Positions 26,658 to 57,336 are shown, counted from the first letter of the stretch. The stretch is 64,000 nucleotides of DNA from Prochlorococcus sp. AG-459-O09 (GCA_003211955.1 QCRH01000001.1:10092-74091); one strand, 5' to 3'. Made by a program: numbers and translations. Notes: generated by a model not told the origin, from the sequence alone.

Positions 26658-26689
26658 TTGACAGTCGATCTACAATAAGGGGCAATAAG
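26658..26689 (+). repeat. Conserved 32-bp cargo-end motif, copy 1
   Basis: TTGACAGTCGATCTACAATAAGGGGCAATAAG; 27/32 identical to each of the reverse-strand copies at 55892-55923 and 57305-57336. Confidence 0.8.
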
Positions 26690-26795
26690 TTCCCTTTTTT
26701 AAAGTGTTTTGAAAGAGAATATTAACTTAATTTAACAAAATTGTTTTTAAAAATTTATTTTAATATTATAAAAATTGAGCTATATAAATTCAAAA

Positions 26796-27113
26796 ATGTC
26801 AGATGAACAAGCAAAAGTTTTTGCTGAAAAAGCATTTAAAGATCCTTCTATTTTAGAAAAATTATCTGTTGATAATGCAGATATTGTTGCAATAGCAAAA
26901 GAGCATGGTCATGAGTTCGATGAAGAGCATATTAAAGCTGCTGAATCTCACTTTGACTCACTTACTGATGCAATGTCCGATGAGGAACTTGAAGATGTAG
27001 CAGGTGGTACTGGTTTCACAGTAGGAGGTAACGTGTCGATAGGAGGTAACATTACGATAGGGGGAAGTGGGGGTGTATTCCGACCAGCAAACCCATTTGG
27101 AGGCTTCGGATAA
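26796..27113 (+). CDS. Nif11-like leader RiPP precursor A1 (core TGFTVGGNVSIGGNITIGGSGGVFRPANPFGGFG)
   Basis: Leader F..KA.KDP...DIVAIAKEHG.EF...MSDEELEDVAGG; ATG at 26796 chosen by alignment with paralog 53861-54151. Confidence 0.9.
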   Translation: MSDEQAKVFAEKAFKDPSILEKLSVDNADIVAIAKEHGHEFDEEHIKAAESHFDSLTDAMSDEELEDVAGGTGFTVGGNVSIGGNITIGGSGGVFRPANPFGGFG

Positions 27114-27551
27114 TTTCCTGAAAAGGTACCGAAATTTAATGCCTTTTACTGTTACGTTTATAACTATAAGCTACCTTGCGGAAGGAAATTTTAGTATTAA
27201 TGAAGTGTTGTTAGATTAGAAATTATCATAACCTATTTCAATATTAGAGATATTGAGAAAAATTTTTATGCAATTAACTTTAATGATATGAAGGGAAATC
27301 AAATAAGACTTTCTTCATTTAGTAAGTCTAGTAAGTCAATACAGAAGTAAGAATTTATAGAAAATGTGAGTCTAAATATTTATATAAAGGTTTAAAAATT
27401 TAAAATAAATAAAAAATTTGAAGTTTAAAACCATAAGATAATAATATATTCATAGTGAACTATTTCATTTATTATCTATACCTTAAAAAGTTAATATAAA
27501 CATAGATAAATTCTAATTTTCAAAGCATTTGATATGGATGCTTGTTTTTAC

Positions 27552-29234
27552 TTATTTTGGCTTGTAAAGATGCTCTTTTAATAAGGAATTTAAGCAATTT
27601 GGAGAAAGATGAACTCCATCACACATATATAACTCATTATTAAAACCTTCTTTTGTAGTTGTTAAAGAATAAACATCTACAAAATAAGCACCTTTTGATA
27701 GAACATCTTTTTTTAAAACTTTATTATAAGTATTAACCACCGCTGCAACTTGATGATCTTCTTTTTCTCTTGAGCCTATCTCAATATTTGGTGCAGGTAT
27801 CCCAAAATAAAATCTTTTAGAATATTTTTTTGAAAGCAATTTTTCCATATATTTAACATAATTCTTAACTGTGTTTTCGCAGATTACTTTTATATCCTTT
27901 TTATTTTTTATGGAATATTGAAGGATCCCTTCGTTTTTTAAACAATCTATTTGACCAAAAGAAATTAATATCTCATCACTATAATTATGGTTTTCGATTT
28001 GATTAGTAATGGAATCCTTCCATTGATTATTTTCACTGCTAGCAAAATGCCAAGCCTTTGCACCAATTATTAAAACTGGTTGGATTATCATGGATTTTGA
28101 GGATATATCTATAGATTGATGCGCAAAAGAAAGACAATGACTTTCTCCAATATGTGGAATTTTTTGAAAATCATTTTTTTTATTTTTTTTACAAAGTAAT
28201 GGGTAAAGAGTTTTTAAAAATTCTAAATAAGTAGAAACATGTTTTTTATTCATTTCATTTTTAATTAAGGGAATTCCTTTTTTTTTGATAAATGTTTTTA
28301 TTATTTGTATCTGAATAAAAAATTTTGGGAAGTTTCCAATTATTAAATTAGAAATCAAAAGTCTAAACATTGCGAGGAATTTATATTCATCACTAATTAA
28401 TTTTGAATTAATCGTTGATTTCGATAAGTGAATAAGTTCATCTAATTTACCAAGGTCAGTCAATATGAAACCTAAAGTAGAATGAGCTTCTCCATAATCT
28501 GGATTTAATTGAATTGCTTTACGGGTATAAAATTCTGCTTCTTTTAGTTTTCCTTTAGTTCTCAATAAATTTCCTAAATTAGAATATGGCTCTGCAAGTT
28601 CAGAATTAATTCGAATTGCTTTGCGAGTATACAGTTCTGCTTGTTTTAGTTTTCCTTGGGCTCTGAATAAATTTCCTAAATTAGAATATGGTTCAGCAAT
28701 ATTAGGATTAAGTTTTATTGCTCTTTGAGTATAAAATTTTGCTTCTTTTAAATTATTAAAATCAGCCAAAATAAGTCCAAGATTCGAATTAGCCTCTGCA
28801 AGTTTAGGATCTAATTTAATTGCCTTGCGAGCATAAAACTCTCCTTCTTTGAGATTATCAAGTTCTCTTAAAATAAGTGCAAGATTAGAAAATGCATTAG
28901 CAAAGAAAGGATCTAACTTAATTGCTTTACGAGTATAAAATTCTGCTTCTTTCAGATTGCCAAGATTTTTAAGTATTGCGCCATAATTTATAAAAATAAT
29001 TTTGTTGTTAATATTTTTACTAATGCAAAATTTATAATATTTAATTGCTTTAGGGATATTCCCCTTTAAATGAAAATGAAGAGATAGGTATATTAATTTT
29101 TTTTTGTCTTTCTCAGAAATATGATTTGATTTAATTTCCTCTTCTACAATGGAATTAGATTGCAATAAATTTGCTGATTGATCAAAGTCTAAAGTATTCT
29201 TTTTTACTTTATTGTTTTTTTTAATATCTTCCAT
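27552..29234 (-). CDS. TPR-repeat protein with C-terminal SGNH/GDSL-like domain
   Basis: About 6 TPRs (YSNLGNL...GKLKEAE.YTRKAI.LNP); HIGESH and CDGVHLS (G-x-S and DxxH). Confidence 0.75.
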   Translation of the reverse strand: MEDIKKNNKVKKNTLDFDQSANLLQSNSIVEEEIKSNHISEKDKKKLIYLSLHFHLKGNIPKAIKYYKFCISKNINNKIIFINYGAILKNLGNLKEAEFYTRKAIKLDPFFANAFSNLALILRELDNLKEGEFYARKAIKLDPKLAEANSNLGLILADFNNLKEAKFYTQRAIKLNPNIAEPYSNLGNLFRAQGKLKQAELYTRKAIRINSELAEPYSNLGNLLRTKGKLKEAEFYTRKAIQLNPDYGEAHSTLGFILTDLGKLDELIHLSKSTINSKLISDEYKFLAMFRLLISNLIIGNFPKFFIQIQIIKTFIKKKGIPLIKNEMNKKHVSTYLEFLKTLYPLLCKKNKKNDFQKIPHIGESHCLSFAHQSIDISSKSMIIQPVLIIGAKAWHFASSENNQWKDSITNQIENHNYSDEILISFGQIDCLKNEGILQYSIKNKKDIKVICENTVKNYVKYMEKLLSKKYSKRFYFGIPAPNIEIGSREKEDHQVAAVVNTYNKVLKKDVLSKGAYFVDVYSLTTTKEGFNNELYMCDGVHLSPNCLNSLLKEHLYKPK

Positions 29235-29505
29235 TATTGAATTTCATAATTAATCTCAAAATAATTAAACTAAAAAAAAATATAGACTAAATATAAATAT
29301 TTTTCATATAAATTTTTTTAGTAAAAATTTATAATTTAGTTTAATTAAAGTCTTCAGTAATTATTGATACAAAAAGTATTCTTATTTTTTTAAATCAAGA
29401 TATACTTCCAATTTTATTATTTCAAAAATTGTAAATTTGAAAAGAAAATGCTTATTCTTATGAAGTAATAGATTTTAAATCTACAAATCATCAATTTTTA
29501 AACCA

Positions 29506-29889
29506 ATGTCTACTAAAGCAAAAGCAGCTATTGACGCAGCATGTGCCGATATGGAATTTCTCAAAGAAATGGTCATGATCGCCGAAAAAAATGAAAGCGA
29601 TAAAGAACATAGATATGAAATTGCAGAAGCATTTGCAAAAAAGGGTTATCCTGATCTTGATGGTGATGATCTATGGGAAACAGCTTTAGCAGATCCAAGA
29701 TTTAATCACAAATTAAATGAATCAAGTAAAGAATATTCCGCAGCTCAAATTGAAGAAATGAGCGATGAAGATCTAGAAAAAGTTGCTGGAGGAGAACTGG
29801 TTGTCATTACTTGTGTTGGAATCGCCTGTGCAACTGGAGTTGGAACTGCTACGATTGTTCAAGAGTCAAGAGCAGGCAGACGCTGGTAA
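29506..29889 (+). CDS. Nif11/NHLP-like leader RiPP precursor B1 (core ELVVITCVGIACATGVGTATIVQESRAGRRW)
   Basis: EMSDEDLEKVAGG double-glycine site; upstream of the C39 exporter. Confidence 0.9.
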   Translation: MSTKAKAAIDAACADMEFLKEMVMIAEKNESDKEHRYEIAEAFAKKGYPDLDGDDLWETALADPRFNHKLNESSKEYSAAQIEEMSDEDLEKVAGGELVVITCVGIACATGVGTATIVQESRAGRRW

Positions 29890-30122
29890 ATATAAATTCA
29901 AATTTGATTATTCTAAAGTTAGCTATCAATAGAATTTATAAATTTTATAGACTTAAGAAAATGGTTTAAATTACTAATTTACATAAATCATAAAGTTTTC
30001 TTAAGAAACAAAATATTCAAATTTAGGATAATTTAATATTTTGGCCAGTTTAAAATATTGCTGCTAGAACTTAAAAGTATCTTCGAGATACAAATAAACC
30101 CCACAAATCTTAAAGTTAAACT

Positions 30123-30503
30123 ATGACTAAAAAGGCTAAAGAGGCACTTGATTTTGCATGTGCTGATAAAGAATTCCTAAAAGAAATGGTTATGATTGCC
30201 GATAAAAATGAAAGCGATCAGGAACATCGTCATGAAATTGCAGCAGCATTTGCAAAAAAAGGTATTGATGTTGATGCTGAGGATTTATATGAAACTGCAA
30301 TGTCAGATCCAAGATTTAACCACAAATTAAATCCATCATCAGAACATCTAACTTCTGCTGAAGTAGCAGAATTAAGCGATGAAGAACTAGAAAAAGTTGC
30401 TGGAGGAGAATTGGTTGTCATTACTTGTGTAGGAATCGGATGTGCAACAGGAGTTGGAGTCGCATCCATTGTTCAAAATTCCCGAGCTGGAAGGCGTTGG
30501 TAA
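30123..30503 (+). CDS. Nif11/NHLP-like leader RiPP precursor B2 (core ELVVITCVGIGCATGVGVASIVQNSRAGRRW)
   Basis: ELSDEELEKVAGG; tandem paralog of B1. Confidence 0.9.
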   Translation: MTKKAKEALDFACADKEFLKEMVMIADKNESDQEHRHEIAAAFAKKGIDVDAEDLYETAMSDPRFNHKLNPSSEHLTSAEVAELSDEELEKVAGGELVVITCVGIGCATGVGVASIVQNSRAGRRW

Positions 30504-30654
30504 GCTAATTCTCAATTAAATCTAATTAAGAAAAATTAAATCTTAAATTCCTAATTCTTTTTTTAAAATTTAAAAACAAATTATTAGGAATTTTGCTAAA
30601 TAAAGGATTTATGGTCAAACAAGTTATTAAAAATCAAAGCATAACCTTTTAAAA

Positions 30655-31866
30655 ATGCCTGAAAACAACCCCCAAGCCGAACAAAAGAATAATAGTTTAC
30701 CTAAAGATCCTGACGATTTTGATCAATCTATTGATATTATTCAAAGACCAGGAAAGTTATGGCTTGCCTCTCTCACAGGAGTAGGTGTGATTACTTTTTT
30801 TTGGTCGATTTTTGGATCTATAAAAATAGAAGAAACTGGACCATCTGTTTTTGTTCCAGAGGGCTCTGTAGCTTTTGCGAGATCAAATGCTTCAATTGGA
30901 ACAGTTAAAGAATTAAAAGTAGAAATTGGTGATTATGTAAAAAAGAATCAGCTTCTTGCAGTTTTAAATGTACCATCAAATTTAAAGTCATTAAAAATCG
31001 CAGAAAATAATTTAGATTTTCAAAAACAAATTGAAAAAGAAAAATATTTATCAGAAATGGTTAGTTTAGATGCTGAGATTAATTCAACTAATGAACTTTT
31101 GAATGTTTACGAAAAAAGATTATCCTCAGCAAAAAAATTAGCAGATGAAAAATTAATACCTGAAGATCGTTATAATAGCGTCTTAGAAAAAACTTCATCT
31201 TTTAAAAATAAATTAAGTGCTCTTCAATCTAGAAAGAGTCAATTGCTACTTAGAAAAAAAGAGGCAATCGAATCAAAAAAAATTACTTTTGAAAGGGAGA
31301 AAAAAAATTATAAACTCGCTTCTCGAGTAACTTCCCCATATAAAGGAAAAGTAATATCTATAAGTACCGCTTTGGGAGAAACAATACAGAAAGGCTCTCC
31401 CTTGGTGCAAGTAGCAAGATCAAATAATACTGAATCAACTAATAAATTAAATTTACGTCATATTGCTTTCTTCCCTGTCGAAGTTGGAAAAAAAATTAGA
31501 TTGGGTATGCCAGTTTTAGTTACACCTTCCACTGTATCAAGAGAGGAATATGGAGGAATTAAAGGATATGTTGCTGATATTTCTCCTTTTCCTATTAGTA
31601 AAGAAAGAATCAAGTCTATTGTTGGAGATGCTTCAACGGTAGATAAAATGAAAGGAGATCAACCAGTTCTAGAAATTAGCTTAAAATTATTAACTGATAA
31701 TAAAACCCCAACAGGTTATGATTGGACTTCTGGTAATGGACCTCTCTCTAACATAAGCCCAGGACTAAGCAGCACCACATATATTAATACAGAAATAAAA
31801 CGACCAATTTCTTTTGCATTACCTTGGATCAAAAACACAATTTTAGGTAAACCTGTAAAAAAATAG
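30655..31866 (+). CDS. NHLP-type bacteriocin secretion membrane-fusion protein (HlyD family)
   Basis: WSIFGSI TM, coiled coil, GKKIRLGMPV.VTPSTV.REEYGGI.G, GYDWTSG.GP. Confidence 0.9.
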   Translation: MPENNPQAEQKNNSLPKDPDDFDQSIDIIQRPGKLWLASLTGVGVITFFWSIFGSIKIEETGPSVFVPEGSVAFARSNASIGTVKELKVEIGDYVKKNQLLAVLNVPSNLKSLKIAENNLDFQKQIEKEKYLSEMVSLDAEINSTNELLNVYEKRLSSAKKLADEKLIPEDRYNSVLEKTSSFKNKLSALQSRKSQLLLRKKEAIESKKITFEREKKNYKLASRVTSPYKGKVISISTALGETIQKGSPLVQVARSNNTESTNKLNLRHIAFFPVEVGKKIRLGMPVLVTPSTVSREEYGGIKGYVADISPFPISKERIKSIVGDASTVDKMKGDQPVLEISLKLLTDNKTPTGYDWTSGNGPLSNISPGLSSTTYINTEIKRPISFALPWIKNTILGKPVKK

Positions 31867-31907
31867 TTTTATGTTAATTTTCAAAGTTATTTCTTACAAT
31901 TAAAATC

Positions 31908-34058
31908 ATGATTAGGAATAAGGTTCCCCAAGTTTATCAATTAGAGGCTGTTGAATGTGGAGCAGCAAGCCTAAACATGATTTTAGGTTATTTCAAAAGG
32001 TGGGAAACTCTCCCCGCACTTAGATTAGCTTTAGGAGTATCAAGGGATGGTGCAAAAGCTTCCAGGATAGTTGCTGCAGCAAGACAATATGGCTTGAAAC
32101 CACTTCCAAAAAGGATTCAAAACGCTGAAGAATTTTTTCAAGCAAGTTTCCCAGCAGTTGCATTCTGGAGCAATAACCATTTTATTGTTGTGGAAGGATA
32201 TGATAAAAAAAATATTTTTGTTAAAGACCCTGCTCAGGGTCCTAAAAAGTATAAATACCAAGATTTTTTTCAAACTTTTTCTGGAGTTTTAATTTCCTTC
32301 GAAAAAACAGCAAATTTCAAAGAGGGTGGTGTTAAACCTAAACCTTTATTGAAAATTCTTGAAAGACTAAAAGGTAATGAAAATGTTATTTACTCTGCAG
32401 CATTACTAGGATTGTTAGGAGTAATTCCTGGAGTTATCATATCTATTACTTCTGGGGAATTTATAGATCAGGTATTTGTTCAGCAGCGTTCCAATTGGAT
32501 TAATCCGATGCTTTGGATTATTGGAAGCGCAGCTGTGTTTAATTATCTCATAACTCTTATAAGACAAAACTTTGTAAGAAATTTACAAAAGAAATTAGAA
32601 ATCATTAATAGTTATGATTTTCTTAAAAGATTAATAAGTCTACCTTTATCGTTCTTTAGACAGAGGAGGGTTGGAGATACAATCTCAAGAATAGATGAAT
32701 CAGATTCAATAGCAGTAACCCTTACTCAAGAGCTTGGCCAAGCTTTAAGTGATTTATTTTCAGTCTTGATTTTTGGGTTAGTAATGTTTTCATTAAATCC
32801 TTTACTCTTTTTTACATTTTTAGTCATTATTGCAATAAATTTTTTGTTTGTTTCAAAAGTATCCGATTCATTAGCCGATACAGAAAGCGCGGTTATGAGA
32901 GCTACCGGATTTGCTGCATCAGCGGGATATAGCGGACTCCTTACAATGAATTCAATTAAAGCAAGTAATTCTGAAAATGGTTGGTACACAAAATGGGCAG
33001 GATATTTTGCAAAATATATAAATGAGTCGCAAAAACTATCAGTTCTCAATAATAAACTTGCTCTTACAACTGGTTTAGTAGAGACTGCCCAAGAAATTTT
33101 AATTATTATTGGCGGTATTGTAAGCATTATCAATGGATGGATGTCTCTTGGGGAGTGGGTCTCTTTTACTTTTCTCAGAGATTATTTCTTGGGACCTGTA
33201 AATGGTTTAGTCTCCTTTGCAACATCTATTCCAGGTTTGTATTCACAAATTAGAAGATTAGACGATGTATTGCTTTATCCAATATCAGATTCAGAAAAAT
33301 TAAGTATTTCAACATCTAACGACTCAAGAACTGAAAAATTATCTGGATTAATTGAAGTTAAAAATTTAACTTTTGGTTTTTCAGCTTATGATCCGCCACT
33401 AATAAAAGATGTTAATTTTTCAATTAAATCTGGAGAACATATATGCGTAGTCGGGAAACAGGGGACTGGAACTTCTACTCTTTTGGGTCTTCTAATGGGC
33501 AGTTATATTCCTTGGGAGGGTTCTATAAGTTTTGATAAAATCGAATCACAAAATATTCCAAAAAGTTTATTTGAAAGTTCTGTTAAATTAGCACTTCAAA
33601 ATTCCATTATTTTTAATGACACAATCAAAAATAATATTACTGGAGTATTCAATACTTCTATAAATAATTCATTTATATATGAAATGTGTAGGATTGCAAA
33701 ATCTGATGATTTTATTTTTGAAAATAATGAAGGTTTGGAGAGAGTAATGAGTCAAGATGGTGGAAATATTTCTGGTGGTGAAAAGCAATTATTAGATATT
33801 ACCAGAGTATTAGTGAGTGAACCAACCATAATACTATTAGATCAAGCCCTTAATTCTATGGATTTAGTACTTCAAGATATGGTAATGAAAAATATATTAT
33901 CTCTTGAAAAAACAATTATTAACGCAACTAGGAATAAGAATATTTTAAATACTTCAGATAAAGTTCTGTACATTAAGGACGATGGTTTAGTTATCAGCTC
34001 AACTCATGAAGAGCTTATTAAATCTGATAGCGAATACCTTGAGTTGATTTCGAATTAA
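31908..34058 (+). CDS. NHLP-type ABC exporter with C39 peptidase domain; degenerate NBD
   Basis: QLEAVECGAASL (Cys), WSNNHFIVV (His), KDPAQG (Asp); NBD motifs GKQGTGTST, ISGGE, LLDQ. Confidence 0.9.
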   Translation: MIRNKVPQVYQLEAVECGAASLNMILGYFKRWETLPALRLALGVSRDGAKASRIVAAARQYGLKPLPKRIQNAEEFFQASFPAVAFWSNNHFIVVEGYDKKNIFVKDPAQGPKKYKYQDFFQTFSGVLISFEKTANFKEGGVKPKPLLKILERLKGNENVIYSAALLGLLGVIPGVIISITSGEFIDQVFVQQRSNWINPMLWIIGSAAVFNYLITLIRQNFVRNLQKKLEIINSYDFLKRLISLPLSFFRQRRVGDTISRIDESDSIAVTLTQELGQALSDLFSVLIFGLVMFSLNPLLFFTFLVIIAINFLFVSKVSDSLADTESAVMRATGFAASAGYSGLLTMNSIKASNSENGWYTKWAGYFAKYINESQKLSVLNNKLALTTGLVETAQEILIIIGGIVSIINGWMSLGEWVSFTFLRDYFLGPVNGLVSFATSIPGLYSQIRRLDDVLLYPISDSEKLSISTSNDSRTEKLSGLIEVKNLTFGFSAYDPPLIKDVNFSIKSGEHICVVGKQGTGTSTLLGLLMGSYIPWEGSISFDKIESQNIPKSLFESSVKLALQNSIIFNDTIKNNITGVFNTSINNSFIYEMCRIAKSDDFIFENNEGLERVMSQDGGNISGGEKQLLDITRVLVSEPTIILLDQALNSMDLVLQDMVMKNILSLEKTIINATRNKNILNTSDKVLYIKDDGLVISSTHEELIKSDSEYLELISN

Positions 34059-34087
34059 CTTGCGAAATTAAATTTTTTTTATTTATT

Positions 34088-36844
34088 ATGTATTCTTCAA
34101 ATCTATCAACAAATCAAAAAATAAAGCTTAATCCTCAAGATCAAGAAGTAAAGGTTTTGAGAGTTAGTTCTTCCAATACAGAATTACTTTTAAGAATTCC
34201 TGACAACGAAAATGGGAGAAACTTTATTGTTTCAAGTTTAAGCGGTCAATTTGATCTTATAATAAGCTCTTTTCAAGAAAAATTACATTATGGTCTATAT
34301 ATAAAGTCACTATCAGAAAATACTAGTTATGAATTGTTAGAAACTGAAGAAGTAAGTGATGACCAATTAATAGAATTATCTTTAACTTACAGCAAAATAT
34401 TTAGAAATTTATTAAACAAAATAATTATTGGAGATTCCTATCATGTCATTGAAACGAGTTTAGATCTTAAAATTGATAAGAATGAATTTTTTAAATTAAC
34501 ATTAAATAAAAATAAATATTTATTAAATACCTCCACCATATTTGCTACTGATGAATTTGTAAAAATAGCTGAGGAAAATAATCTAATTAAAAAAAAGGAA
34601 ACTATAGATTTAGATATTTCTCATTTGAAAGAAATGAATAATTTCTTAGAGGAAATATCATCTGATTATATTGCACTGCAAAAAAGGGAAGAATCAAAAG
34701 AGGTTCAAGATGTTATCAAAGCAGATAATCAAAACTATATCCAGGCAATTGAAAATTTAGATGCATTATTTCATAAACACAAAAAGACTTCAGTAACCTT
34801 AGGCAATGATCCTCTCGAATTAATTAAAGAAATGTGTTTATTATCTAAAATAAATACTGATTTCTTTGACAAAATAGATTTCTCAAAAAATATTTCATTA
34901 GAGGAATTAATTTCTGAAGTAGGGGATATAGGTGGTTATCGATTTAGGCGAATATCTTTAAAAAAGGATTGGAGGAATCAAAGTCATGGAAATTTACTCT
35001 GCATTAACAATTCTGGTGAAGCATTAATAGCTTACGAGAATTCTCCTGCAAAATATGAACTATCTAGTGGATCAGAAGATAGAGATTTCGATAACATTAG
35101 TATTGGGTATGTTTTCTATAAGTCTCTTCCAGATGTAGTTAAGCCCTCTAGTCTTTTTAAATATGCTATTGAAGGCAAGACAACTGATATTGTTTTTGTC
35201 TTTGTAGCAGCAATAACAGGCACAATATTAGGTTTTATACCCCCAATAGTAATTGGTGAATTATTGAATAAAGCTGTTCCTGCTACTGATTTGTCTTTAG
35301 CTATAGAATTTGCGGGCCTTCTTTTTGTAGTTTCTTTTGGAGTAATTTTATTTGATCTTACAAAATCAATTTGTCAAGTGCGTCTTGAATCAATTATTAA
35401 TTCTAATTTGCAATCTGCAGTTTGGGACAGAGTTCTAAGAATAAAACCACAGTTTTTTGCAAAATATAATTCAGGGATTTTGTTAGATAAAATCAACGGT
35501 ATTTCAAGTATTAGAGAATTACTTACTGGAGCTACAACACAGGCAATATTAGATGGTTTATTTGGAATACTACATTTATCCTTAATGTATTTTTATAGTC
35601 CTGAATTAACTGCTATTTCATTATGGATAGTTCTTTTTATAGTGGTAGTAACAATAGTTCATAGAGTTCTAATTACTAAGTCAGTAAGGGGATTAATAAA
35701 AACTGAAGGAGAATTGCAGGGTTTCGCCGCAGAAATAGTAACTGGAATAAACAAAGTAAAAGTCTCTGGATTTCAGTCTGCTTTATTCAGGAAATTTACA
35801 GGTTTATATGCTAAGAGAACATCCTTTAGTCATAGAGTAGAAACAATTAAGGATAGTCAATCAGCAATTCAGGTTTTGTTTCAACCAATATCTACTCTAA
35901 TACTTTATTGGGTCCTAGTCGGAGCAATTTTCAATCCAGATGCAAAATCAAGCATAACGTTAGGGGCTTATTTTGCCTTTAGTGCATCCTTTGGGATATT
36001 ACTATCAGCAGTTACAGAATTATCTGCAGTAATAACAGAAACCTTAGGTGATGTAGATGCTTTATTAAATCATACAAAAGATGTTTTGGAAGCCCCTCTA
36101 GAAAATAATTCGGGTGAATATGCACAATTTGAAAACCCAACTATTAGTTTCAAAAATGTTAGCTTTTCATATGAAAATTCTAAAAATATTATTAGTAATT
36201 TATCTTTTGATATTAAAGCAGGGGAAACCCTGGCTTTGCTAGGCCCTACCGGTAGTGGTAAATCAACAATTGCTAATTTAATTTTATGTTTTGAATTGCC
36301 AACTTCTGGGACGATCTTAATTTCAGGATTTGATATTTCTAAAGTAAATGTAAAATCACTTAGATCGTCTATGTCTGCTGTACTTCAAGGAACAGTGCCA
36401 ATAGCTGGTAACATTTATGATTTTATTACTGGAGGTATTCATATTGAAACCGATTATTTAAATAATATTCTTGATGTTGTAAGCCTTAAAAACTTAACAG
36501 AAAAATTGCCTATGGGTCTTCACACAATTATCTCAGAAAATGGAAGTAATTTTTCTCTCGCTGAAAATGCAAAATTCATTCTTGCAAGAGGTTTAATTAC
36601 AAAACCAAAATTAATAATTCTAGATGAAGTGCTCACCAAATTATCTCAAGAAGAGGTTGATAAAATCCTGTCATATTTGAAAGCTAACAAAATAACAGCA
36701 ATTATATTAGGCCAAGAATTTAATATTGCAAAATTAACAGATAAATTACTTGTTATTGAAAAAGGTAATTCTTATTTCGGAAACTATAACACTGTAGTAA
36801 AAAAATCTAAATTTTTTAAAACTTTGGAACAGTTGTCTAAATGA
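34088..36844 (+). CDS. NHLP-type ABC exporter, peptidase-less partner subunit
   Basis: YRFRRISLKKDW, LQSAVWDRVL, GPTGSGKST, LPMGLHT, IILDE. Confidence 0.88.
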   Translation: MYSSNLSTNQKIKLNPQDQEVKVLRVSSSNTELLLRIPDNENGRNFIVSSLSGQFDLIISSFQEKLHYGLYIKSLSENTSYELLETEEVSDDQLIELSLTYSKIFRNLLNKIIIGDSYHVIETSLDLKIDKNEFFKLTLNKNKYLLNTSTIFATDEFVKIAEENNLIKKKETIDLDISHLKEMNNFLEEISSDYIALQKREESKEVQDVIKADNQNYIQAIENLDALFHKHKKTSVTLGNDPLELIKEMCLLSKINTDFFDKIDFSKNISLEELISEVGDIGGYRFRRISLKKDWRNQSHGNLLCINNSGEALIAYENSPAKYELSSGSEDRDFDNISIGYVFYKSLPDVVKPSSLFKYAIEGKTTDIVFVFVAAITGTILGFIPPIVIGELLNKAVPATDLSLAIEFAGLLFVVSFGVILFDLTKSICQVRLESIINSNLQSAVWDRVLRIKPQFFAKYNSGILLDKINGISSIRELLTGATTQAILDGLFGILHLSLMYFYSPELTAISLWIVLFIVVVTIVHRVLITKSVRGLIKTEGELQGFAAEIVTGINKVKVSGFQSALFRKFTGLYAKRTSFSHRVETIKDSQSAIQVLFQPISTLILYWVLVGAIFNPDAKSSITLGAYFAFSASFGILLSAVTELSAVITETLGDVDALLNHTKDVLEAPLENNSGEYAQFENPTISFKNVSFSYENSKNIISNLSFDIKAGETLALLGPTGSGKSTIANLILCFELPTSGTILISGFDISKVNVKSLRSSMSAVLQGTVPIAGNIYDFITGGIHIETDYLNNILDVVSLKNLTEKLPMGLHTIISENGSNFSLAENAKFILARGLITKPKLIILDEVLTKLSQEEVDKILSYLKANKITAIILGQEFNIAKLTDKLLVIEKGNSYFGNYNTVVKKSKFFKTLEQLSK

Positions 36845-38034
36845 CATTTTATCCAAAATCATTTAGTCATTTTATAAGAGATTTTTTATTAATTGATGAA
36901 AAAATTTTTAGGGAAGAGTATAGAGACAAAAAATTTAAATATAATTTAAGTACTAATTTTTTAAATAAGTTTAAAAAATTAACTAAAAAAAATATTCAGG
37001 ATCTTCTTTTCTCAAATATTGTTGAAGATAGAGACCTTAGAATAGTAAAGGATGGAGATAGATTAAATACATCTGAATTACCCAAAAAACAAAGAATAAG
37101 AACCTACAGTTTATTAGAAAAGTTTCATAATAATTACAGTATAATTTTGTATAATGCTCATAAATATTGTGAGGATCTTGCAATTTTTGCACATTATCTT
37201 TCCTGCCATATTTTTGGAGAAGTTTATATAAATTTATATCTCAGTCCGCCAGGATCAACTGCTTTATCTCCTCACTTCGATACTCATGAAGTTTTCGCAA
37301 TACAACTTTATGGAAACAAAAGATGGTTTTTATATGATCAATACAATAAACCACTTATTAACTCTTTCCAACCAAACTTAAAAAATATAGAGTGGAAAGA
37401 ATTAATTGAAATGTTTGAGGGGTCAACACTCTTTATTCCAAGAGGTTTAGTTCACTCAGCAGTTACATTAGAAAATCTTTCAATACATATGACAATATCA
37501 ATTTATCCACCTCAGAAGATAGATCTATGTAAATCTTCATTACTTATAAATTCTAATCTTAATGAAGAATTAAGAGATTTATATGATTTCGACAATCAGC
37601 CTAATTTTGAGATTAAACTCCCAAGACCTGGAGAAGAAGAATTTAAAAAAATTTTATTTTACTTACCTACTCCAGTATCTCAGGGATTATCAAATAATGA
37701 AAATTTAGTATCCCCAACATCATCGTTATCAATTTTTGAGAAGGCAATTACCAAGAATAGTCAGGAATTCATTGATATAAAATTAACATTGACTCATGAA
37801 TCAATTTATTTTCTAGAATTTGATGATTACTATATGGTATTTGACTACAAGTCTAAAGTGTCTTTACCAAAGTCTCTACGAAATTCTGACTCTAAATCAT
37901 ATGATGAATTGATAAAATTCTTAAAAAAACAAGATTCTTCTAATTCATTAAATCTTTCTATCAAATCAAAGAAAATTCTCCTGAAGTTTATAAGAAAAAT
38001 GATACTTGCTAGAATTCTTGAAGAGTCAAATTAA
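36841..38034 (+). CDS. JmjC/cupin 2OG-Fe(II) hydroxylase (RoxA/NO66-like)
   Basis: NLYLSPPG...PHFDTHEVFAIQLYGNKRW...LFIPRGLVHSA (HxD...H); overlaps the upstream stop. Confidence 0.85.
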   Translation: MTFYPKSFSHFIRDFLLIDEKIFREEYRDKKFKYNLSTNFLNKFKKLTKKNIQDLLFSNIVEDRDLRIVKDGDRLNTSELPKKQRIRTYSLLEKFHNNYSIILYNAHKYCEDLAIFAHYLSCHIFGEVYINLYLSPPGSTALSPHFDTHEVFAIQLYGNKRWFLYDQYNKPLINSFQPNLKNIEWKELIEMFEGSTLFIPRGLVHSAVTLENLSIHMTISIYPPQKIDLCKSSLLINSNLNEELRDLYDFDNQPNFEIKLPRPGEEEFKKILFYLPTPVSQGLSNNENLVSPTSSLSIFEKAITKNSQEFIDIKLTLTHESIYFLEFDDYYMVFDYKSKVSLPKSLRNSDSKSYDELIKFLKKQDSSNSLNLSIKSKKILLKFIRKMILARILEESN

Positions 38035-39201
38035 ATGATTAAATTAAAAATTTCAGATTATGGAGGAATCCATTTTAGGGAATTTGATATAAAAAATTTA
38101 AAATTATATCGTCCAAATTCAGAAGAGGAATTTGTTTCATTTTTGAATAAACTTATTACTAAAAAAATCAGTTTTAGTTTTTCAGGGGGGTCTCACACTT
38201 TTAATGGATCAAGTATTCCAGAACCAAATAAATATCATATAGATTTAACTAATTATAGATGGTACAAATGTCATTCAGATAACATCTTGGAAGTTGCATC
38301 GGGATGTACAGTTTGGGACATAAGAGATTTTGTTCAAAGTCTGAAATTAAAACTGAGAGTTTGGAATGGTGGATTTGCGGGTCCCACCATAGGAGGATAC
38401 TTATTATCGGGAGGTTTTGGGAGAAGTGGTTTATCAGAGAAAGATGGTGGACTTTGGGAAATAGTTGAATTTATAAAAGTAATAGTTCCAGCAAATGGAG
38501 TAATAAAAACTATAAGAAAATCTGATGCTATTTTTAAGTGGATATTTGGAAGTAAAGGAACATTAGTAATTATTTCGAGTGTTGGTTTAAGATTAGAAAA
38601 ATTAACTAATAATGAATTACAAAAAGGGGAAAAAGGAATTTTACCTTTTCTTCAACCTATTCTTTATGAACGTCACAAATATCCAGATCTATTTAAATAT
38701 TCACCATTTACATCAGCTGAATCTCAATTTTTAGAATATGGAACCAAACTTTTTTGGTTTTCTCATTTGATTTATCCAGAATCATATGAAAATTCAATAA
38801 AAGTTTTATCTGATTTTCATTATCATAATTCTTCAATTATTAAACCTACTGGAGGGTGGGTCGATGGACCAAGGGAACAAGATAAAAATTTTGGATATAA
38901 ATATTACATTAAACAAAAGAGTTTTATACCACCCCTTCTAATGAATAAAAACCAAGACTTTTTAGTAACTGGTATAATGTCATATTTATCTATTTCCTCT
39001 ACTACAAATATTGAGGAAATTGAAAAGGTCTCAAAAAATTTTATAAACCTAACTATGAATAATGGCTTACGTTTATATCATCAAGCAGAAGATTTTTTTA
39101 ATCTTATAGATTACAAAACTTATTATGATAAAAAAACATGGTCTGAATATATAAATCATAAAAAAACATTAGATCCTTTTAATTTTCTTCCCTCGCTCTA
39201 A
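38035..39201 (+). CDS. FAD-binding oxidoreductase (VAO/PCMH fold)
   Basis: GGSHT (possible His-FAD linkage), PTIGGYLLSGGFG, GSKGTLVII, KKTLDP. Confidence 0.8.
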   Translation: MIKLKISDYGGIHFREFDIKNLKLYRPNSEEEFVSFLNKLITKKISFSFSGGSHTFNGSSIPEPNKYHIDLTNYRWYKCHSDNILEVASGCTVWDIRDFVQSLKLKLRVWNGGFAGPTIGGYLLSGGFGRSGLSEKDGGLWEIVEFIKVIVPANGVIKTIRKSDAIFKWIFGSKGTLVIISSVGLRLEKLTNNELQKGEKGILPFLQPILYERHKYPDLFKYSPFTSAESQFLEYGTKLFWFSHLIYPESYENSIKVLSDFHYHNSSIIKPTGGWVDGPREQDKNFGYKYYIKQKSFIPPLLMNKNQDFLVTGIMSYLSISSTTNIEEIEKVSKNFINLTMNNGLRLYHQAEDFFNLIDYKTYYDKKTWSEYINHKKTLDPFNFLPSL

Positions 39202-39202
39202 A

Positions 39203-40450
39203 ATGACAGATTTGAAAAAATATTTTTGGAATAAAAATGTTAAGGTTGTTCCCTATCACAATAAATATTATTTAACCAACTCTAATCCTTCTAGAAATTC
39301 ATTTATGCCAACAATGGATTTTGAATGTACTGAATTTCTATATTTATTAAGCTTATTTATGATAAAAAAAGAAAAACCTATTTCTTACGATGAATTAAAT
39401 AAATGGTATCAAAACTGCAAAAAAGAAAAATTACCTTTACCAATCTTAATTGAATATTTAAAACGTAAGAGTTTAATGATTTTGGATCAAGATTCTGGAA
39501 ATAATGCAGAGTTATTCTCAGCTTGGGATAGGAATTACTTAGTAGATGATAGGATTTTTTCTACTCCATTAAAAGAACCTACTCCTGGAATTCTTAATAT
39601 ATTTGGTGTCCCTATATGCTCTACTCCAGATTCCTTTGGATCACAGTTTTCTCCCGGTTTAATAAGATCTTTATTGGTGGAGCCATATTATTCAAAAAAT
39701 TATAATAATTGTAAAAGTGATTTTGAAGAATATAATAATCTTCAGATACCATTGGTAAGTGATTTTGGTGATATAAATGTTGAAGGTTCGCCATCTTTAA
39801 TTTGTAATAATTTAGAAAAGAATTTAAAGGAGATAATTAAGTTTAAAAATACTAAAATTATTTTTCTGGGAGGCGACCATTCTATCCTTTCAATATGTGC
39901 TAAAGCTTGTTTCAATGATCAAGAATTTAACTTAATACATTTTGATGCTCATTCTGATGCATCTTTTGTCAATGGAGATATTTTTAATCATGCTAATCCT
40001 ATTAATTACGTTTTAGAGAAATGTCCAAAATCTAGAATTTTTTCGTTTGGTTTAAGAACAGGAGCAGATTTTAGAGAAGTTGAATCAAATGCTCCAAAAC
40101 CAGAACTGACTCATAAAGATAGATTAACCCAATTTTCAATTGATGAGACAATACAATTTATTAATTCAGGATCTTTTGATGATTTATCAATTGATAAAAG
40201 CCTGCCTTGTTATCTTTCCATAGATCTTGATGTTCTTGATCCAAATAAATTCCCCTGGGTATCAACACCTCTGAGGGATGGATTATCTGTCAATGATTTT
40301 TTAAAGCTTTTAGACAAAACATGCGAATCTTTAAATCCTCGTTTTCTAGATATCGTAGAATTAAATCTCATTAAATCAAATGATATAAATAAGCTAGAAA
40401 TAGCTGATTTATTTTTAATGATTATAATTAGATTTGCGAAGCATTTTTAA
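39203..40450 (+). CDS. Arginase/agmatinase-family ureohydrolase with about 125-aa N-terminal extension
   Basis: GGDHS, HFDAHSD and SIDLDVLDP binuclear-metal motifs intact; DIVELN. Confidence 0.87.
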   Translation: MTDLKKYFWNKNVKVVPYHNKYYLTNSNPSRNSFMPTMDFECTEFLYLLSLFMIKKEKPISYDELNKWYQNCKKEKLPLPILIEYLKRKSLMILDQDSGNNAELFSAWDRNYLVDDRIFSTPLKEPTPGILNIFGVPICSTPDSFGSQFSPGLIRSLLVEPYYSKNYNNCKSDFEEYNNLQIPLVSDFGDINVEGSPSLICNNLEKNLKEIIKFKNTKIIFLGGDHSILSICAKACFNDQEFNLIHFDAHSDASFVNGDIFNHANPINYVLEKCPKSRIFSFGLRTGADFREVESNAPKPELTHKDRLTQFSIDETIQFINSGSFDDLSIDKSLPCYLSIDLDVLDPNKFPWVSTPLRDGLSVNDFLKLLDKTCESLNPRFLDIVELNLIKSNDINKLEIADLFLMIIIRFAKHF

Positions 40451-40577
40451 GTTTTAAAAATTTTCTCTAATAATATTTTTATTTATGTTTTGATATGAAA
40501 ACCTTGATTTAAGATTAGAAATTTAAAAAGACTAAATAATTAAAAGTAGTTAAAATTAGATAAAATCTTAATTTTAA

Positions 40578-42017: not shown

Positions 42018-42023
42018 AAAAAT

Positions 42024-49596: not shown

Positions 49597-49607
49597 CAAT
49601 TTTTAAA

Positions 49608-50876: not shown

Positions 50877-50958
50877 AATAAACTTTTGGAATTAATTTAT
50901 TGAGAGTCTTTGGTATTTAGACAAAATTCGTTTTAATTAATAAATATAAGATTTTAAA

Positions 50959-51117: not shown

Positions 51118-51164
51118 CTTCATTGATTATTTTTTAAATTTGAATAAATACATAACTAATTTAA

Positions 51165-53300: not shown

Positions 53301-53860
53301 TCTATTTTCTTTATATTTACTGTTAACTTAAAGATTCAGAAAAAATAAATCAACCAATTGATGAATTTTATTAACAACCTATTTATTTTTAATAATAAAT
53401 TTTATTTGATATTTTTGCGCAAATAATGGTATTTATTTAACTCTAGATACTTAAAAAATATTGATTTACTTATTTAAATAATTAGAGAAATAGAAAAAAG
53501 GTGGTCAGTAAGTACTCACTTTAATTTTGGATGTCAACTCTATCATCCATAAACTTTTGGCACTATAGATTAAAATCTAATGTTTTCTGTGGACTATAAG
53601 GAGCGCACTCGGTCGGTTGATGGCATAATCAAAAACTTGGTTAAAAGACTTTAGAAAGACAATAAAAGTTTTTATAGGATCAGTCTGGGTAGTAGAAAGG
53701 GAAATAGTATTAGTCCTCCAATTAAAAACGTATTTGAACAATGGCAAATTCATTGTTGATGAAATACCTTTTAAACTATTTAGCCTTTTTTAGTTTTTAA
53801 GATATACAAAATTCAAAATTCAAGAGATGTGAGTAGTAAGATTATAAAATTAGGATTTTT

Positions 53861-54151
53861 TTAAAATATAGATATTGATCTAGATCCACCATGCCCTTTG
53901 TTCCTTGGAATATCAGTACCAAAAATACCATCTAAAAATCCACCAGCAACTTTTTCTAGTTCTTCATCTGACATTTCATTAATGAGTGAGTCTAAGTGAG
54001 CTTGTCCAGCTTCAATATGCTCTTTATCAAACTCATGACCATGATCTTTTGCTATTGCAACAATATCTGCCCCCTCAGAATTTATTTTTTCAAGGATTGC
54101 TGGATCTTTTAATGCTTTTTCTGCGAAAGCCTTCGCTTGTTTAACTGACAT
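53861..54151 (-). CDS. Nif11-like leader RiPP precursor A2 (core FLDGIFGTDIPRNKGHGGSRSISIF)
   Basis: Leader 50/71 identical to A1; EMSDEELEKVAGG. Confidence 0.9.
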   Translation of the reverse strand: MSVKQAKAFAEKALKDPAILEKINSEGADIVAIAKDHGHEFDKEHIEAGQAHLDSLINEMSDEELEKVAGGFLDGIFGTDIPRNKGHGGSRSISIF

Positions 54152-54313
54152 TTAGTGAAGTTAAAAGGTGTATAGAGATAATAGTAAAAAAAATATATAA
54201 TGACAATTTCCTTAAATTAAAGTACCAGTCTCTTTAAAAAGCCGAATCAATTGAATGTAAAATTTTTGTAAAATTTTAAGACATATTTTTTATTAGAGAG
54301 CTTTAATGAATAT

Positions 54314-55159: not shown

Positions 55160-55283
55160 AAAATCATTAAAAAAATATTTTCCAATATATTTGTTTTTTA
55201 ATATACCTCCTTTAATAATCTTCTTGCTTTTGGGTTTGTTTAAGTATTAAAAATATGAAATTAGTAAGCGTTTCATTTGATTA

Positions 55284-55901
55284 TTAGATGTTATCTGTTT
55301 GAGAATCTTTATATTCAGAACTACATGCATCTATATTTAAAAACTCATAATTTAAAGAGACATATCCCTCTTCTGTACTAGTAGCGAATGTTCTTACTGA
55401 TATATTTTTAATATTTTTTTGAGGAAGATTTGAGCCAACGTCATTAGTCCAATAAGCTTCAAGGTATCTTTCTTCTTTTAATAATCCCATCATCCAATAT
55501 TGTGAATCATTCCAGATACTGTTTCTTTTAACAAAATCATATTTTTTATTAGTACCATATTTTTTTGTTAAAGCTTTTTCAAAAAATTCAAATTCGTTTA
55601 TTAGTTGATCTCCAAAGGAATTTGAATACAAAATATCCGTATGGCTTATTATCCTACAAAGTCCTGATTTTGGAGTAATTAATAAATCATATTTAGTTAA
55701 TTTGGAGTTACCTTTTGGAAGCTCCTCTGTCGTATACCAATAATTTCCATCATCTTTGAGAGAAACACCTTTATTAGATATATCTTTCTTTGTCTCACCC
55801 ATATTTAAACCAAATTGGCTAGATAATAAATATTGAGGAAAAACAAAAATAGAAATTATTATTGTTAGAAAAAATTTCAATTTAAAAGGAGCTAATCGCA
55901 C
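55284..55901 (-). CDS. Hypothetical secreted/periplasmic protein
   Basis: Signal-peptide-like N-terminus, FGLNMG motif; GTG start lies inside the 32-bp motif and is uncertain. Confidence 0.65.
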   Translation of the reverse strand: MRLAPFKLKFFLTIIISIFVFPQYLLSSQFGLNMGETKKDISNKGVSLKDDGNYWYTTEELPKGNSKLTKYDLLITPKSGLCRIISHTDILYSNSFGDQLINEFEFFEKALTKKYGTNKKYDFVKRNSIWNDSQYWMMGLLKEERYLEAYWTNDVGSNLPQKNIKNISVRTFATSTEEGYVSLNYEFLNIDACSSEYKDSQTDNI

Positions 55902-55923
55902 TTTATTGTAGATCGATTGTCAA
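55892..55923 (-). repeat. Conserved 32-bp cargo-end motif, copy 2
   Basis: Reverse complement TTGACAATCGATCTACAATAAAGTGCGATTAG. Confidence 0.8.
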
Positions 55924-55947
55924 AAATTTAAATACTCTATTCTGATT

Positions 55948-56163
55948 TGACCGCTTATGACCGTTTTAAATATTATGACCGAAATATGACCGTTTTTTCT
56001 CCAATATACGGTAACTGAGTGGAATTCTAAGGAACTAATCTATTTTCAAGAAAATAAAAAAACTCCTAAAAGGAGTTGTACCTTGAAAAGTTAGTTGTGG
56101 ATTACGGAGGGGGTGGGATTCGAACCCACGGTGCCCTTGCAGACACGCTAGTTTTCAAGACTA
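55948..56163 (-). repeat. att-like direct repeat: four TATGACCG arm-type sites, terminator hairpin and tRNA-Ser 3' 59 nt (partner 57360-57580)
   Basis: Collinear with 57360-57580; tRNA fragment 56105-56163 identical to the functional gene; AACTCCT-aaa-AGGAGTT hairpin. Confidence 0.9.
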
Positions 56164-56287
56164 TAAGATATTAAGTGATACCAGTTTATTAGATAGCATC
56201 TAAGGAACAAATATGACCGAAATATACCCGTTTTTTAAAGAGATTAATTTAATGAATATCTTCAGGATTTTATAAGTCTTAAGCGTT

Positions 56288-56860
56288 TCATTCATTAAAT
56301 GCATTCTTAACTAAATTTTCTATTCCATAAATTTCTTTAAATTTATTATTCCATATGTTTCTTTTTGTTTTGCGATTACCATCAACTAGTCCCATAAACT
56401 TTCTTATCTCTTTTGAAGTTGGTGGCATAGGTCTTGAATCACATGAATTAGATGTATACAAAAATGGTTCTTTATCTGGGCAGTTAGGATCTGAAATAGC
56501 TTTTGTTATTTCAGTTAATTTGTAATAGGTATGCCAAACAGGTTTACTTACATGACCAGCAGTATATAAGCCAACACCATCAACAGTTAAAAAATCACTC
56601 GCAGTACTTTTTTCAATACTTCTACAATTACCTGCACCAATATAAACATAACCACTAGGGCAACTATTTCCTGTTAACTCTGTTTTACCCTGAATCATTC
56701 TTAAGCTTGGTATATCAGTTGATTTGATTGTCATAGCTTTCACGCAACCAAGATAATCTTTGGCATCTTTACAGCGATTATGAATTTTATTCGATATCTC
56801 AGCATTAACAGCAGTAGGTAAAGCGAGTGCAGCTAGTAGTGGGAGTAGTATGCGTTTCAT
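56288..56860 (-). CDS. Cys-rich hypothetical secreted protein
   Basis: Signal peptide MKRILLPLLAALALPTAVNA; 6 Cys. Confidence 0.7.
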   Translation of the reverse strand: MKRILLPLLAALALPTAVNAEISNKIHNRCKDAKDYLGCVKAMTIKSTDIPSLRMIQGKTELTGNSCPSGYVYIGAGNCRSIEKSTASDFLTVDGVGLYTAGHVSKPVWHTYYKLTEITKAISDPNCPDKEPFLYTSNSCDSRPMPPTSKEIRKFMGLVDGNRKTKRNIWNNKFKEIYGIENLVKNAFNE

Positions 56861-57148
56861 TTATTTTGGATCATAATTTGGATCATATAAAAAACGTTCA
56901 TAGATATGACACTCAAAGTAAATCATTAATAAAAGCGGTATATTTGCATATTTACTAAAGACGTAAGCAGTTAGAACACAAACAAAAATTCTGCGAAATT
57001 CATAATCAAAAATATATCTAAAAAATTTATACGGTGTTTTAATTAATATTCCTGCGATTCTGACCAAATGCAATATAGGCAAAAAGAATATAAACAAAAA
57101 AAGTTTTGTAATTTTATACTGTTTATCTAAATATGGTTTCTCAGTCAT
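56861..57148 (-). CDS. Hypothetical membrane protein
   Basis: 95 aa; stop abuts the next start. Confidence 0.55.
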   Translation of the reverse strand: MTEKPYLDKQYKITKLFLFIFFLPILHLVRIAGILIKTPYKFFRYIFDYEFRRIFVCVLTAYVFSKYANIPLLLMIYFECHIYERFLYDPNYDPK

Positions 57149-57294
57149 TTATAAATTTGTTCTTGATTACCAAAGTCACTAAATATATTTTTGGAATCAG
57201 AATTTTTAATAATCACATCAGGTTCTTTATTATCATCTAACCAAGGCACTCCTCCTTTAAGAATAATAAATAATCTTCGAAAAAATTCTTTCAC
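57145..57294 (-). CDS. Small hypothetical protein (49 aa)
   Basis: Manual translation MKEFFRRLFIILKGGVPWLDDNKEPDV...; GTG start, stop overlaps the next ATG (ATGA). Confidence 0.5.
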   Translation of the reverse strand: MKEFFRRLFIILKGGVPWLDDNKEPDVIIKNSDSKNIFSDFGNQEQIYK

Positions 57295-57304
57295 AAAAAA
57301 ATAG

Positions 57305-57336
57305 CTAATTGCCTCTTATTTTAGTGCGACTGTCAA
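57305..57336 (-). repeat. Conserved 32-bp cargo-end motif, copy 3
   Basis: Reverse complement TTGACAGTCGCACTAAAATAAGAGGCAATTAG. Confidence 0.8.

Follow-up and report, generated by a model that had tools for sequence, protein, structure and literature searches.

What does a short sequence that recurs at the edges of a genomic island do there? The question is raised by a 64,000-nucleotide (nt) stretch of DNA from Prochlorococcus sp. AG-459-O09 (GCA_003211955.1 QCRH01000001.1:10092-74091; this whole stretch is called the window below), in which three copies of an unnamed motif lie beside the attachment (att) arms of an island that targets a tRNA-Ser(tga) gene. A preliminary description took the motif to be a 32-base-pair (bp) unit placed at every junction between an att arm and the island's cargo, and proposed either an integron-like recombination site or a promoter or operator supplied by the element. 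We find that the motif belongs to a conserved unit of ~46 nt that is probably a portable promoter-leader module, distributed across the genus and carrying a nested terminator-like hairpin. The integron-like, att-junction reading is not supported, and the same holds for a dedicated role in recombination.

The 32-nt copies are real, but the conserved unit is longer and extends through a hairpin and a T-run up to a start codon. From 5' to 3' it comprises (t)GA, often just past the stop codon of the preceding gene; a 13-nt box, TTGACAGTCGATC; a -10 element, TAnAAT; AA; a short hairpin, rich in G, that reads GGGGCAATTAGCTCC or GAGGGATAAAACCCTC; a run of 5-8 T; and ATG, GTG or TTG. Across 126 aligned copies, conservation begins sharply at module position -2 and reaches beyond the 21-nt core that was searched for, with TGA at -2 to 0, a G-run at 22-25, CTCC at 33-36 and the T-run at 37-43. 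The box is the best-conserved part, in copies that were chosen by their match to it, and T14, A15 and T19 of TAnAAT are nearly invariant, the middle positions being freer. The window holds three copies.

26656..26700, plus strand: module copy 1, with GA, box TTGACAGTCGATC, -10 element TACAAT, hairpin GGGGCAATAAGTTCCC and a T-run
55878..55925, minus strand: module copy 2, with box TTGACAATCGATC, -10 element TACAAT, a weak hairpin, a T-run and a TTG start codon at 55880-55878
57292..57338, minus strand: module copy 3, with box TTGACAGTCGCAC, -10 element TAAAAT, a weak hairpin, a T-run and a GTG start codon at 57294-57292

The pattern TTGACARTCGNNCTAMAATAA matched the window only at 26658-26678 (plus), 55903-55923 (minus) and 57316-57336 (minus), with nothing else at up to three mismatches; shuffled sequences gave a mean of 0.20 matches, and none of 100 reached three. 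These are the places first described for the motif, and the identity of 27/32 then given for copy 1 against each of the others was also correct (copies 2 and 3 share 24/32). All three copies point into the cargo from ~58, 24 and 24 nt inboard of an arm cluster (copies 1, 2 and 3), in agreement with the earlier estimate of ~25-60 nt. Copies 2 and 3 are not independent, because both lie inside one duplicated block of ~290 nt that contains the 3' part of tRNA-Ser, arms with TATGACCG words and the motif. The start codons of copies 2 and 3 lie 22 and 21 nt past the core, respectively.

Beyond the window, the 21-nt core at up to two mismatches is present in all 121 genomes of the genus that were sampled, at 1-33 copies each, and a reversed-pattern control gave none. 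In a family-level sample it occurs in five of five genomes of the genus (the window's included) and in one of 146 genomes from 63 other genera. The window's own genome (1.23 Mb in 76 contigs, 75% complete) carries 10 copies at up to two mismatches and 13 at up to four, five of them on one 17-kb contig; about ten further copies in this genome are all distant from any arm. Copies elsewhere are clustered: 12 of the 14 in genome G015 fall in two stretches, 347626-360016 (12 kb) and 1347088-1364586 (18 kb), as do 15 of the 17 in genome G096. Taken together with the promoter evidence below, this makes it likely that the module is typical of variable island genes in high-light-type Prochlorococcus. 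It is not a phage feature: viral contigs contain two exact core matches, one a chance match inside a coding region of a GC-rich phage and the other a true copy of the module, located at one end of an 85-kb, AT-rich contig. Nor does it fit a repeat of the miniature inverted-repeat transposable element or repetitive extragenic palindrome type, for which terminal inverted repeats, a target-site duplication and both orientations relative to genes would be expected: 39 of 61 copies are oriented toward a start codon at a fixed distance, and the module alignments show no terminal inverted repeats.

Transcription start sites tie the module to promoter activity. G015 is a single contig, and its coordinates agree with the TSSAR start-site tables (Tables S8-S11) from the differential RNA sequencing of Read et al. 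2017 (PMC5607370); as a check on this fit, a tabulated distance of 16 nt upstream of a gene leads to the ATG seen in the G015 sequence. All 14 G015 copies were looked up in the accessible portion of these tables, and four have a listed start site 25-27 nt past the start of the core.

1347088, plus strand: copy with a start site at 1347115 (+27), 16 nt before PMM1401
358210, minus strand: copy with a start site at 358183 (+27), 16 nt before PMM0377
359654, minus strand: copy with a start site at 359627 (+27), no gene annotated
360016, minus strand: copy with a start site at 359991 (+25), 20 nt before PMM0379

Because these starts map 7-9 nt past the last T of TAnAAT, within the hairpin loop, TAnAAT acts as a -10 element. 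The arrangement expected of a sigma-70-type -10 element, TAnnnT at 6-9 nt before a mapped start, is found at these four of the 14 copies, and three of the five G015 copies with a perfect core have a start at the module offset. Between start site and start codon lies a U-rich leader of 16-20 nt without a Shine-Dalgarno sequence. TTGACA occupies -27 to -22 relative to the start site, only 7 nt from the -10 element and, as had been recognised, too close to serve as a -35; the whole box covers -27 to -15. No conserved hexamer stands at -35 of the module, where a sigma-70-type promoter would have one (15-19 nt before the -10 element), either in the 126-copy alignment or at the G015 starts. After 24 h without nitrogen, the tables list 21 start sites in G015 345,398-361,663, of which three belong to modules. 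A T7-like phage promoter (the contiguous 21-nt core followed by GGG) was also considered and rejected, because the mapped starts fall 4-6 nt beyond the G-run. At the mapped copies, then, RNA polymerase starts 7-9 nt past the -10 element, in the hairpin loop, and produces a U-rich leader directly before the start codon. In the mechanism that we propose, the box, wrongly placed for a -35, is most likely a site for a binding factor or a special polymerase contact. The earlier suggestion of a promoter is thus largely borne out: the G015 starts agree with it, but the promoter neither comes from one element nor is tied to att arms.

The position of start codons and the variety of the genes behind the module are consistent with this mechanism. 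An open reading frame (ORF) of at least 30 codons begins 19-24 nt past the core in 39 of 61 copies and elsewhere in 15, with none within 200 nt in the remaining seven; the fixed distance argues for a role in expression. The 86 distinct downstream proteins form 47 clusters, and a Pfam scan of 32 cluster representatives found a family above the cut-off for 12 (DUF3764 three times, DUF3804 and sigma-70 region 2 twice each, and DUF3303, DUF1330, trypsin-like peptidase, PDZ and TM2 once each) and none for 20. The module thus precedes many unrelated, mostly small and uncharacterised genes, from at least 47 families. Because it does so in all genomes of the genus examined, we favor the view that it is a promoter and leader that switches on unrelated island genes and not a special mark of integration sites. 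At four loci (G000_C19:1294, L020, L061:2627 and L084:2047) the module is followed by a common conserved stretch (AATAGCAAAGTACGCTATCCGC...) with no start codon, which may mark where a convergent gene ends or may belong to a non-coding RNA.

The 3' half of the module suggests that it might also end transcription. Of 112 distinct regions past the -10 element, 67 fold at -2 kcal/mol or below; in the common forms, T5-8 comes directly after a 6-7 bp stem of -8 to -10 kcal/mol. There are two hairpin classes, GGGGC..GCTCC and GAGGG..CCCTC, each giving a 6-7 bp stem. Mean fold energy is -4.02, compared with -2.90 ± 0.16 for chimeras of 5' and 3' halves (0/200 as low) and -1.16 for shuffled sequences (0/100). 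The form of an intrinsic terminator, a G+C-rich stem-loop directly before a T-run, is present in the common modules. The hairpin cannot form in the module's own mRNA, because its 5' arm lies upstream of the start site, and could form only in read-through RNA from upstream or in DNA. RNA reads over a G015 stretch with four copies come from the gene strand. Run X24 has a depth of ~190 in the gene ahead of one module but of 72, 38 and 31 through this module and past it, a roughly five-fold drop. From the form of the hairpin we infer a terminator role: hairpin and T-run most likely halt transcripts reading in from upstream, and one short unit would thereby close one gene and open the next. In most copies, positions -2 to 32 (for example, window 26656-26689) also contain stop codons in all three frames (TGA at -2, TGA at 2-4, TAA or TAG at 19-21, and TAG at 30-32 or TAA at 27-29), so every upstream reading frame closes before the next start codon; this may be a chance product of AT-rich DNA.

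Several observations weigh against a promoter that also terminates. First, the mapped starts all come from homologous copies in G015 and none from the window's three copies. Second, 10 of the 14 G015 copies, two of them with a perfect core, have no start at the module offset in the accessible tables for the four conditions, and at one of these ten a start lies 41 nt further on, from another promoter. Third, copy 1 and roughly one copy in three overall have no start codon where it is usually found; in copy 1 the first ORF begins 96 nt past the core, and the next ATG, that of a Nif11-type gene, is at 26796. Fourth, the 13-nt box is conserved more tightly than the -10 element, which promoter function alone does not explain, and the box also precedes a plain terminator without a -10 element, at a conserved site behind a gene for a protein of 117 amino acids (aa). 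For the terminator in particular, column-wise pairing is 70.8%, as against 67.6% for shuffled sequences, but it reaches 71-74% when the partners are slid by +1 to +3; this count does not discriminate, because the G-run faces a pyrimidine run and slid registers pair equally well. Runs X21 and X22 show no clear fall in depth across the module, because the downstream gene is itself well expressed, and the three G015 runs contain no pile-up of RNA ends either where the module's start is mapped or at its T-run; a single small pile of read ends lies inside the core of another G015 copy. At L061:13933 (G015:C1:358932), 44-61 reads in each of the three runs diverge into one common, unlike sequence, a sign that the sequenced cultures may differ structurally from G015 there; the point is not at a module.

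The position and conservation of the box also suggest a regulon, in which TTGACAGTCGATC would be an operator bound by a dedicated regulator or an alternative sigma factor that co-switches variable island genes. The box is the most conserved part of copies selected on it, and -27 to -15 is where repressors and some activators act. To our knowledge it fits none of the NtcA, HLR1 and LexA boxes, as judged from their consensus sequences, and no factor is known for it. Some module-driven genes beside tRNA-Ser arms do encode proteins with sigma-70 region 2, namely a 279-aa protein at L089:2165-3001 (G040) and a 177-aa protein, also with SHOCT, at L095:1756-2286 (G114). The genus has few regulators, and the comparable case of the CGRE1 motif was matched to its factor by pull-down (accessible text of PMC6191309); the box differs from CGRE1 in form and position, however, and in the accessible tables the signals of the four module start sites change less than two-fold between nitrogen-replete and nitrogen-deprived cells. 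We regard a regulon as possible, at something short of an even chance.

Gene order around the module raises the separate issue of exchange. Counting only contexts that occur two or more times, 14 of 16 upstream contexts are joined to at least two different downstream genes (one of them to five), and 22 of 22 downstream contexts have at least two upstream contexts, although the clustering of contexts was rough (ungapped, 70% identity) and may inflate the latter figure. Gene order thus often changes at the motif, but the test has low power: because the module fills almost the whole intergenic gap, any gain or loss of a gene must break at it, and the changes in gene order fit site-specific exchange, general recombination, or genes that carry their own promoter. 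A promoter could nonetheless be a passive substrate for recombination, if dispersed, near-identical 46-nt copies supply short homologies through which general recombination or slippage would delete, insert or swap single-gene cassettes in the islands. Direct-repeat arrays with one gene per module are found in G015 (spacings of 379, 1065 and 362 nt) and G096 (346, 340 and 916 nt), the neighboring genes change at the module, and the hairpin type goes with the downstream gene as the upstream spacer does with the upstream gene. By contrast, no event was caught in the act, window copies 1 and 2 are only 78% alike across 49 nt and would be poor homology, and the same pattern is expected if each gene carries its own promoter. 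Passive exchange of this kind is a tentative proposal that could well be wrong.

A likeness to tRNA-Asn enters into the remaining alternatives. The box and its two preceding bases, GATTGACAGTCGATC, match the anticodon arm of tRNA-Asn(gtt) (G000:C3:59902-59975) in reverse complement at all but one position (14/15), and only 73 of 500,000 shuffled boxes matched any of the genome's 28 tRNAs that well. tRNA-Asp, checked since the box loop reads GTC in reverse complement, has an unrelated anticodon stem. There is one tRNA-Asn per genome in 41 genomes, and it does not look like an integration hot spot, because tandem partial copies of it are lacking in all 41. On a bolder reading, which we think unlikely, the module would be the junction element of an integrase-less gene-cassette system, combining a core that came from the anticodon arm of tRNA-Asn with a promoter and a nested terminator.

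Site-specific, integron-like recombination is a good deal harder to sustain. Here the box would be the core site of a tyrosine recombinase, with a 7-nt center, TTGACAG, flanked by short inverted repeats, and single-gene cassettes would be exchanged at it. Anticodon loops are well known as crossover sites, conservation of the module sets in sharply at -2, and the module stays put behind a tRNA-Ser arm while the first gene differs among G025, G001, G107, G040 and G090, in keeping with the changes of gene order described above. As in an integron array, one short conserved site that bears an imperfect inverted repeat separates single genes, and the neighbors vary by genome. Integron cassettes are mostly promoter-less, however, and their attC sites have R''/R' core sequences, whereas the module stands at the 5' end of genes, brings its own promoter and has no R''/R' core. 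The left half of the inverted repeat is weak (consensus TGA). Neither a Phage_integrase domain nor an integron integrase or other recombinase was found among the 33 ORFs at 20-64 kb of the window, the stretch to which the scan was limited, and none is known to act at the module. The G015 RNA reads contain no recombination joints. Mapped starts and the fixed distance to the start codon fit expression instead, the gene-order test has the low power already noted, and tRNA-Asn lacks tandem copies. We therefore consider this half of the preliminary proposal very improbable.

The box without a -10 element occurs at a conserved site, where a variant, ATT(G/A)ACAGTCGATCGC, runs straight into a strong hairpin and a T-run, 14 nt past the stop codon of the 117-aa gene; the site was found in eight of eight loci examined, one per genome and including the window's genome, and a standard module that precedes a DUF3764 gene lies 466 nt downstream of it.

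G000:C6:30444-30490 (L006:1034-1080): box-terminator variant, with the same site in L017, L024, L027, L032, L036 and L038

That this variant recurs in seven other loci from seven genomes, and that box RNA would be able to pair with the anticodon arm of tRNA-Asn, one of the pairs being G-U, could indicate an RNA-level element in which box and hairpin form the conserved 3' end of the upstream transcript (a signal in the 3' untranslated region or a small RNA) and the promoter is secondary, but the -10-like pattern of TAnAAT, the starts mapped in G015, the many copies that lie behind untranscribed or divergent DNA and the lack of any Rfam family at the motif in a scan of the window make this the least credible of the readings.

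The link of the module with att arms is local. The arm features of the window are these.

57521..57609, minus strand: intact tRNA-Ser(tga) gene, the island's integration target
56104..56163, minus strand: partial copy of the tRNA-Ser 3' part, an att-type repeat (56056-56163 matches 57473-57580 at 95%)
26241..26303, minus strand: third partial copy of the tRNA-Ser 3' part, more diverged (64%)
26394..26599: direct repeat of 57569-57774 (206 nt, 88%), with TGGTCTC words at 26581-26587 and 26592-26598
57569..57774: partner of the 206-nt repeat, at the intact tRNA-Ser, with TGGTCTC words at 57756-57762 and 57767-57773
55927..56062, minus strand: arm segment with TATGACCG words, between the partial tRNA and copy 2
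57341..57477, minus strand: arm segment with TATGACCG words, between the tRNA-Ser gene and copy 3 (79% and 81% repeat matches)

The 206-nt repeat holds the 5' half of tRNA-Ser from the anticodon loop, the upstream flank and the two TGGTCTC words. The motif does not mark every junction of arm and cargo: there is no copy at ~26300 or at 56200-56260, and beyond the right-hand TGGTCTC pair (57756-57773) stands only a degenerate look-alike on the opposite strand (57830-57854; 18/25 by manual count). Two arm families do adjoin the motif in the window, but they fare differently elsewhere. The tRNA-Ser 3' part, TATGACCG arms and module are contiguous in four other genomes (G025, G001, G107 and G040), and in G090 the module lies ~200 nt from a tRNA fragment, the same distance as in that arrangement; the TGGTCTC arm with a module was found in none of 120 other genomes. 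Most genomes match only the tRNA part of the tRNA-Ser, TATGACCG and module block, and most module copies have no tRNA fragment nearby. Association with the TATGACCG arm is thus a feature of few genomes, and association with the TGGTCTC arm one of the window only. Even behind the TATGACCG arm, the window's first gene is kept only in G025 and varies in G001, G107, G040 and G090. The three window copies are, we think likely, ordinary members of the family that drive the outermost genes beside the tRNA-Ser arms. At 26241-26435 the window also contains a split tRNA-Ser look-alike, with its 3' part at 26241-26303, its 5' part from ~26385, ~85 nt away, a break inside the anticodon loop, and at the joint GAGACCA (TGGTCTC in reverse); from its layout it looks like the scar of an element that integrated in the anticodon loop and duplicated the 5' half. 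The 42 nt directly 5' of copy 1 (window 26613-26654) recur at 88-93% identity in at least 10 other genomes, in three of which they adjoin a module, and in three genomes a 45-nt stretch 5' of copy 1 travels with the module.

The first genes behind the three window copies differ.

26796..27113, plus strand: Nif11-leader peptide gene with a GG motif (PF07862, E 9.6e-10), first gene right of copy 1
55284..55880, minus strand: first gene behind copy 2, encoding a 198-aa protein with no Pfam family and an N-terminus that, judged by eye, looks like a signal peptide
57145..57294, minus strand: first ORF behind copy 3, 49 aa, sharing 4 nt with the beginning of the ORF that follows (56861-57148)

The 29 kb between copies 1 and 2 encode Nif11-leader peptides with GG motifs, a C39-peptidase ABC exporter, HlyD-like and TolC-like proteins, JmjC, FAD-linked, arginase-family and 2-oxoglutarate (2OG) oxygenase enzymes, and an Mrp-type antiporter, channels and transporters; in the window scan, none of these inner genes is preceded by the module pattern. 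Part of this cargo (26796-43676 and 53861-54151) resembles a cluster for ribosomally synthesised and post-translationally modified peptides. It has four genes for Nif11-leader or GG-motif peptides (26796, 29506, 30123 and, on the minus strand, 53861), together with the HlyD-like protein, the C39-peptidase exporter, a second ABC protein, and the JmjC, FAD-linked, arginase-family, TolC-like and 2OG-oxygenase proteins. The outer two Nif11 genes form a 214-nt inverted repeat, 80% complementary (26794-27007 and 53940-54153). Five tandem 102-nt repeats (28460-28969) lie within a gene for a 560-aa TPR protein (27552-29234, minus strand). At the gathering threshold, Rfam detected only tRNA and a glutamine-II riboswitch in the window, the latter at 61560-61621 on the minus strand (RF01704, 70.2 bits).

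The closest known idea to the module is promoter reuse. Reused or 'putative mobile' promoters are near-identical upstream sequences before unrelated genes, and how they spread is unknown (Nijveen, Matus-Garcia and van Passel 2012, accessible text of PMC3575422). Like them, the module precedes unrelated genes within a genome and across relatives; unlike them, it includes a leader and a hairpin, has mapped starts and is confined to one genus. It also falls outside their operational definition (at least 80% identity over at least 50 nt, within -150 to -50, before non-paralogous genes), and that survey would miss it because it spans ~46 nt within -46 to -1. A second parallel is the promoter-coupled terminator, with the order stem-loop (doubling as the -35), T-tract, -10 element and start site, and an RNA end ~10 bp upstream of the start, as described, with no cyanobacterium named, in the accessible part of Fletcher et al. 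2026 (10.64898/2026.08.19.745784). The definition there asks for an RNA end no more than 35 bp upstream of a start site on the same strand, with the T-tract ahead of the -10 element. In both, one short unit between tandem genes apparently ends one transcript and starts the next. The module has a different order, -10 element, stem-loop with the start in its loop, then T-tract, and its termination is putative; as the T-run lies downstream of the -10 element and the start, its RNA end would presumably lie downstream of the start as well, the reverse of the Fletcher arrangement.

Other precedents are more distant. Tycheposon att sites, as given in the accessible part of a preprint (Hackl et al. 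2020, 10.1101/2020.12.28.424599), resemble the window's tRNA-Ser(tga) with its partial copies and the module at the inner end of one arm family, but most module copies are far from tRNA fragments; that part of the preprint neither describes the module nor contains the term PRE1, and it states that Prochlorococcus cells lack most common mobile elements. In the archaeal halovirus HF2, short repeated intergenic sequences are promoters (accessible text of PMC8707807), although they differ from the module in sequence and architecture. We found no published description of the module or of the string TTGACAGTCGAT, including in the accessible text of PMC2518516 and PMC5069720; this coverage of the literature is partial, and an earlier description, perhaps as PRE1, is possible.

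How the variable island genes of Prochlorococcus are expressed and exchanged is an open question in cells with few regulators, and the module offers several handles on it. It is a sequence tag for island genes, a bait for a binding factor, a natural minimal promoter-leader for genetic tools and a defined place to seek cassette exchange. Its nested order of -10 element, hairpin with the start in the loop, T-run and start codon would be an unusually compact combination of transcript end and start. Finally, if the module were indeed the junction element of an integrase-less cassette system, a newly arrived gene would receive a ready-made stop, start and leader.

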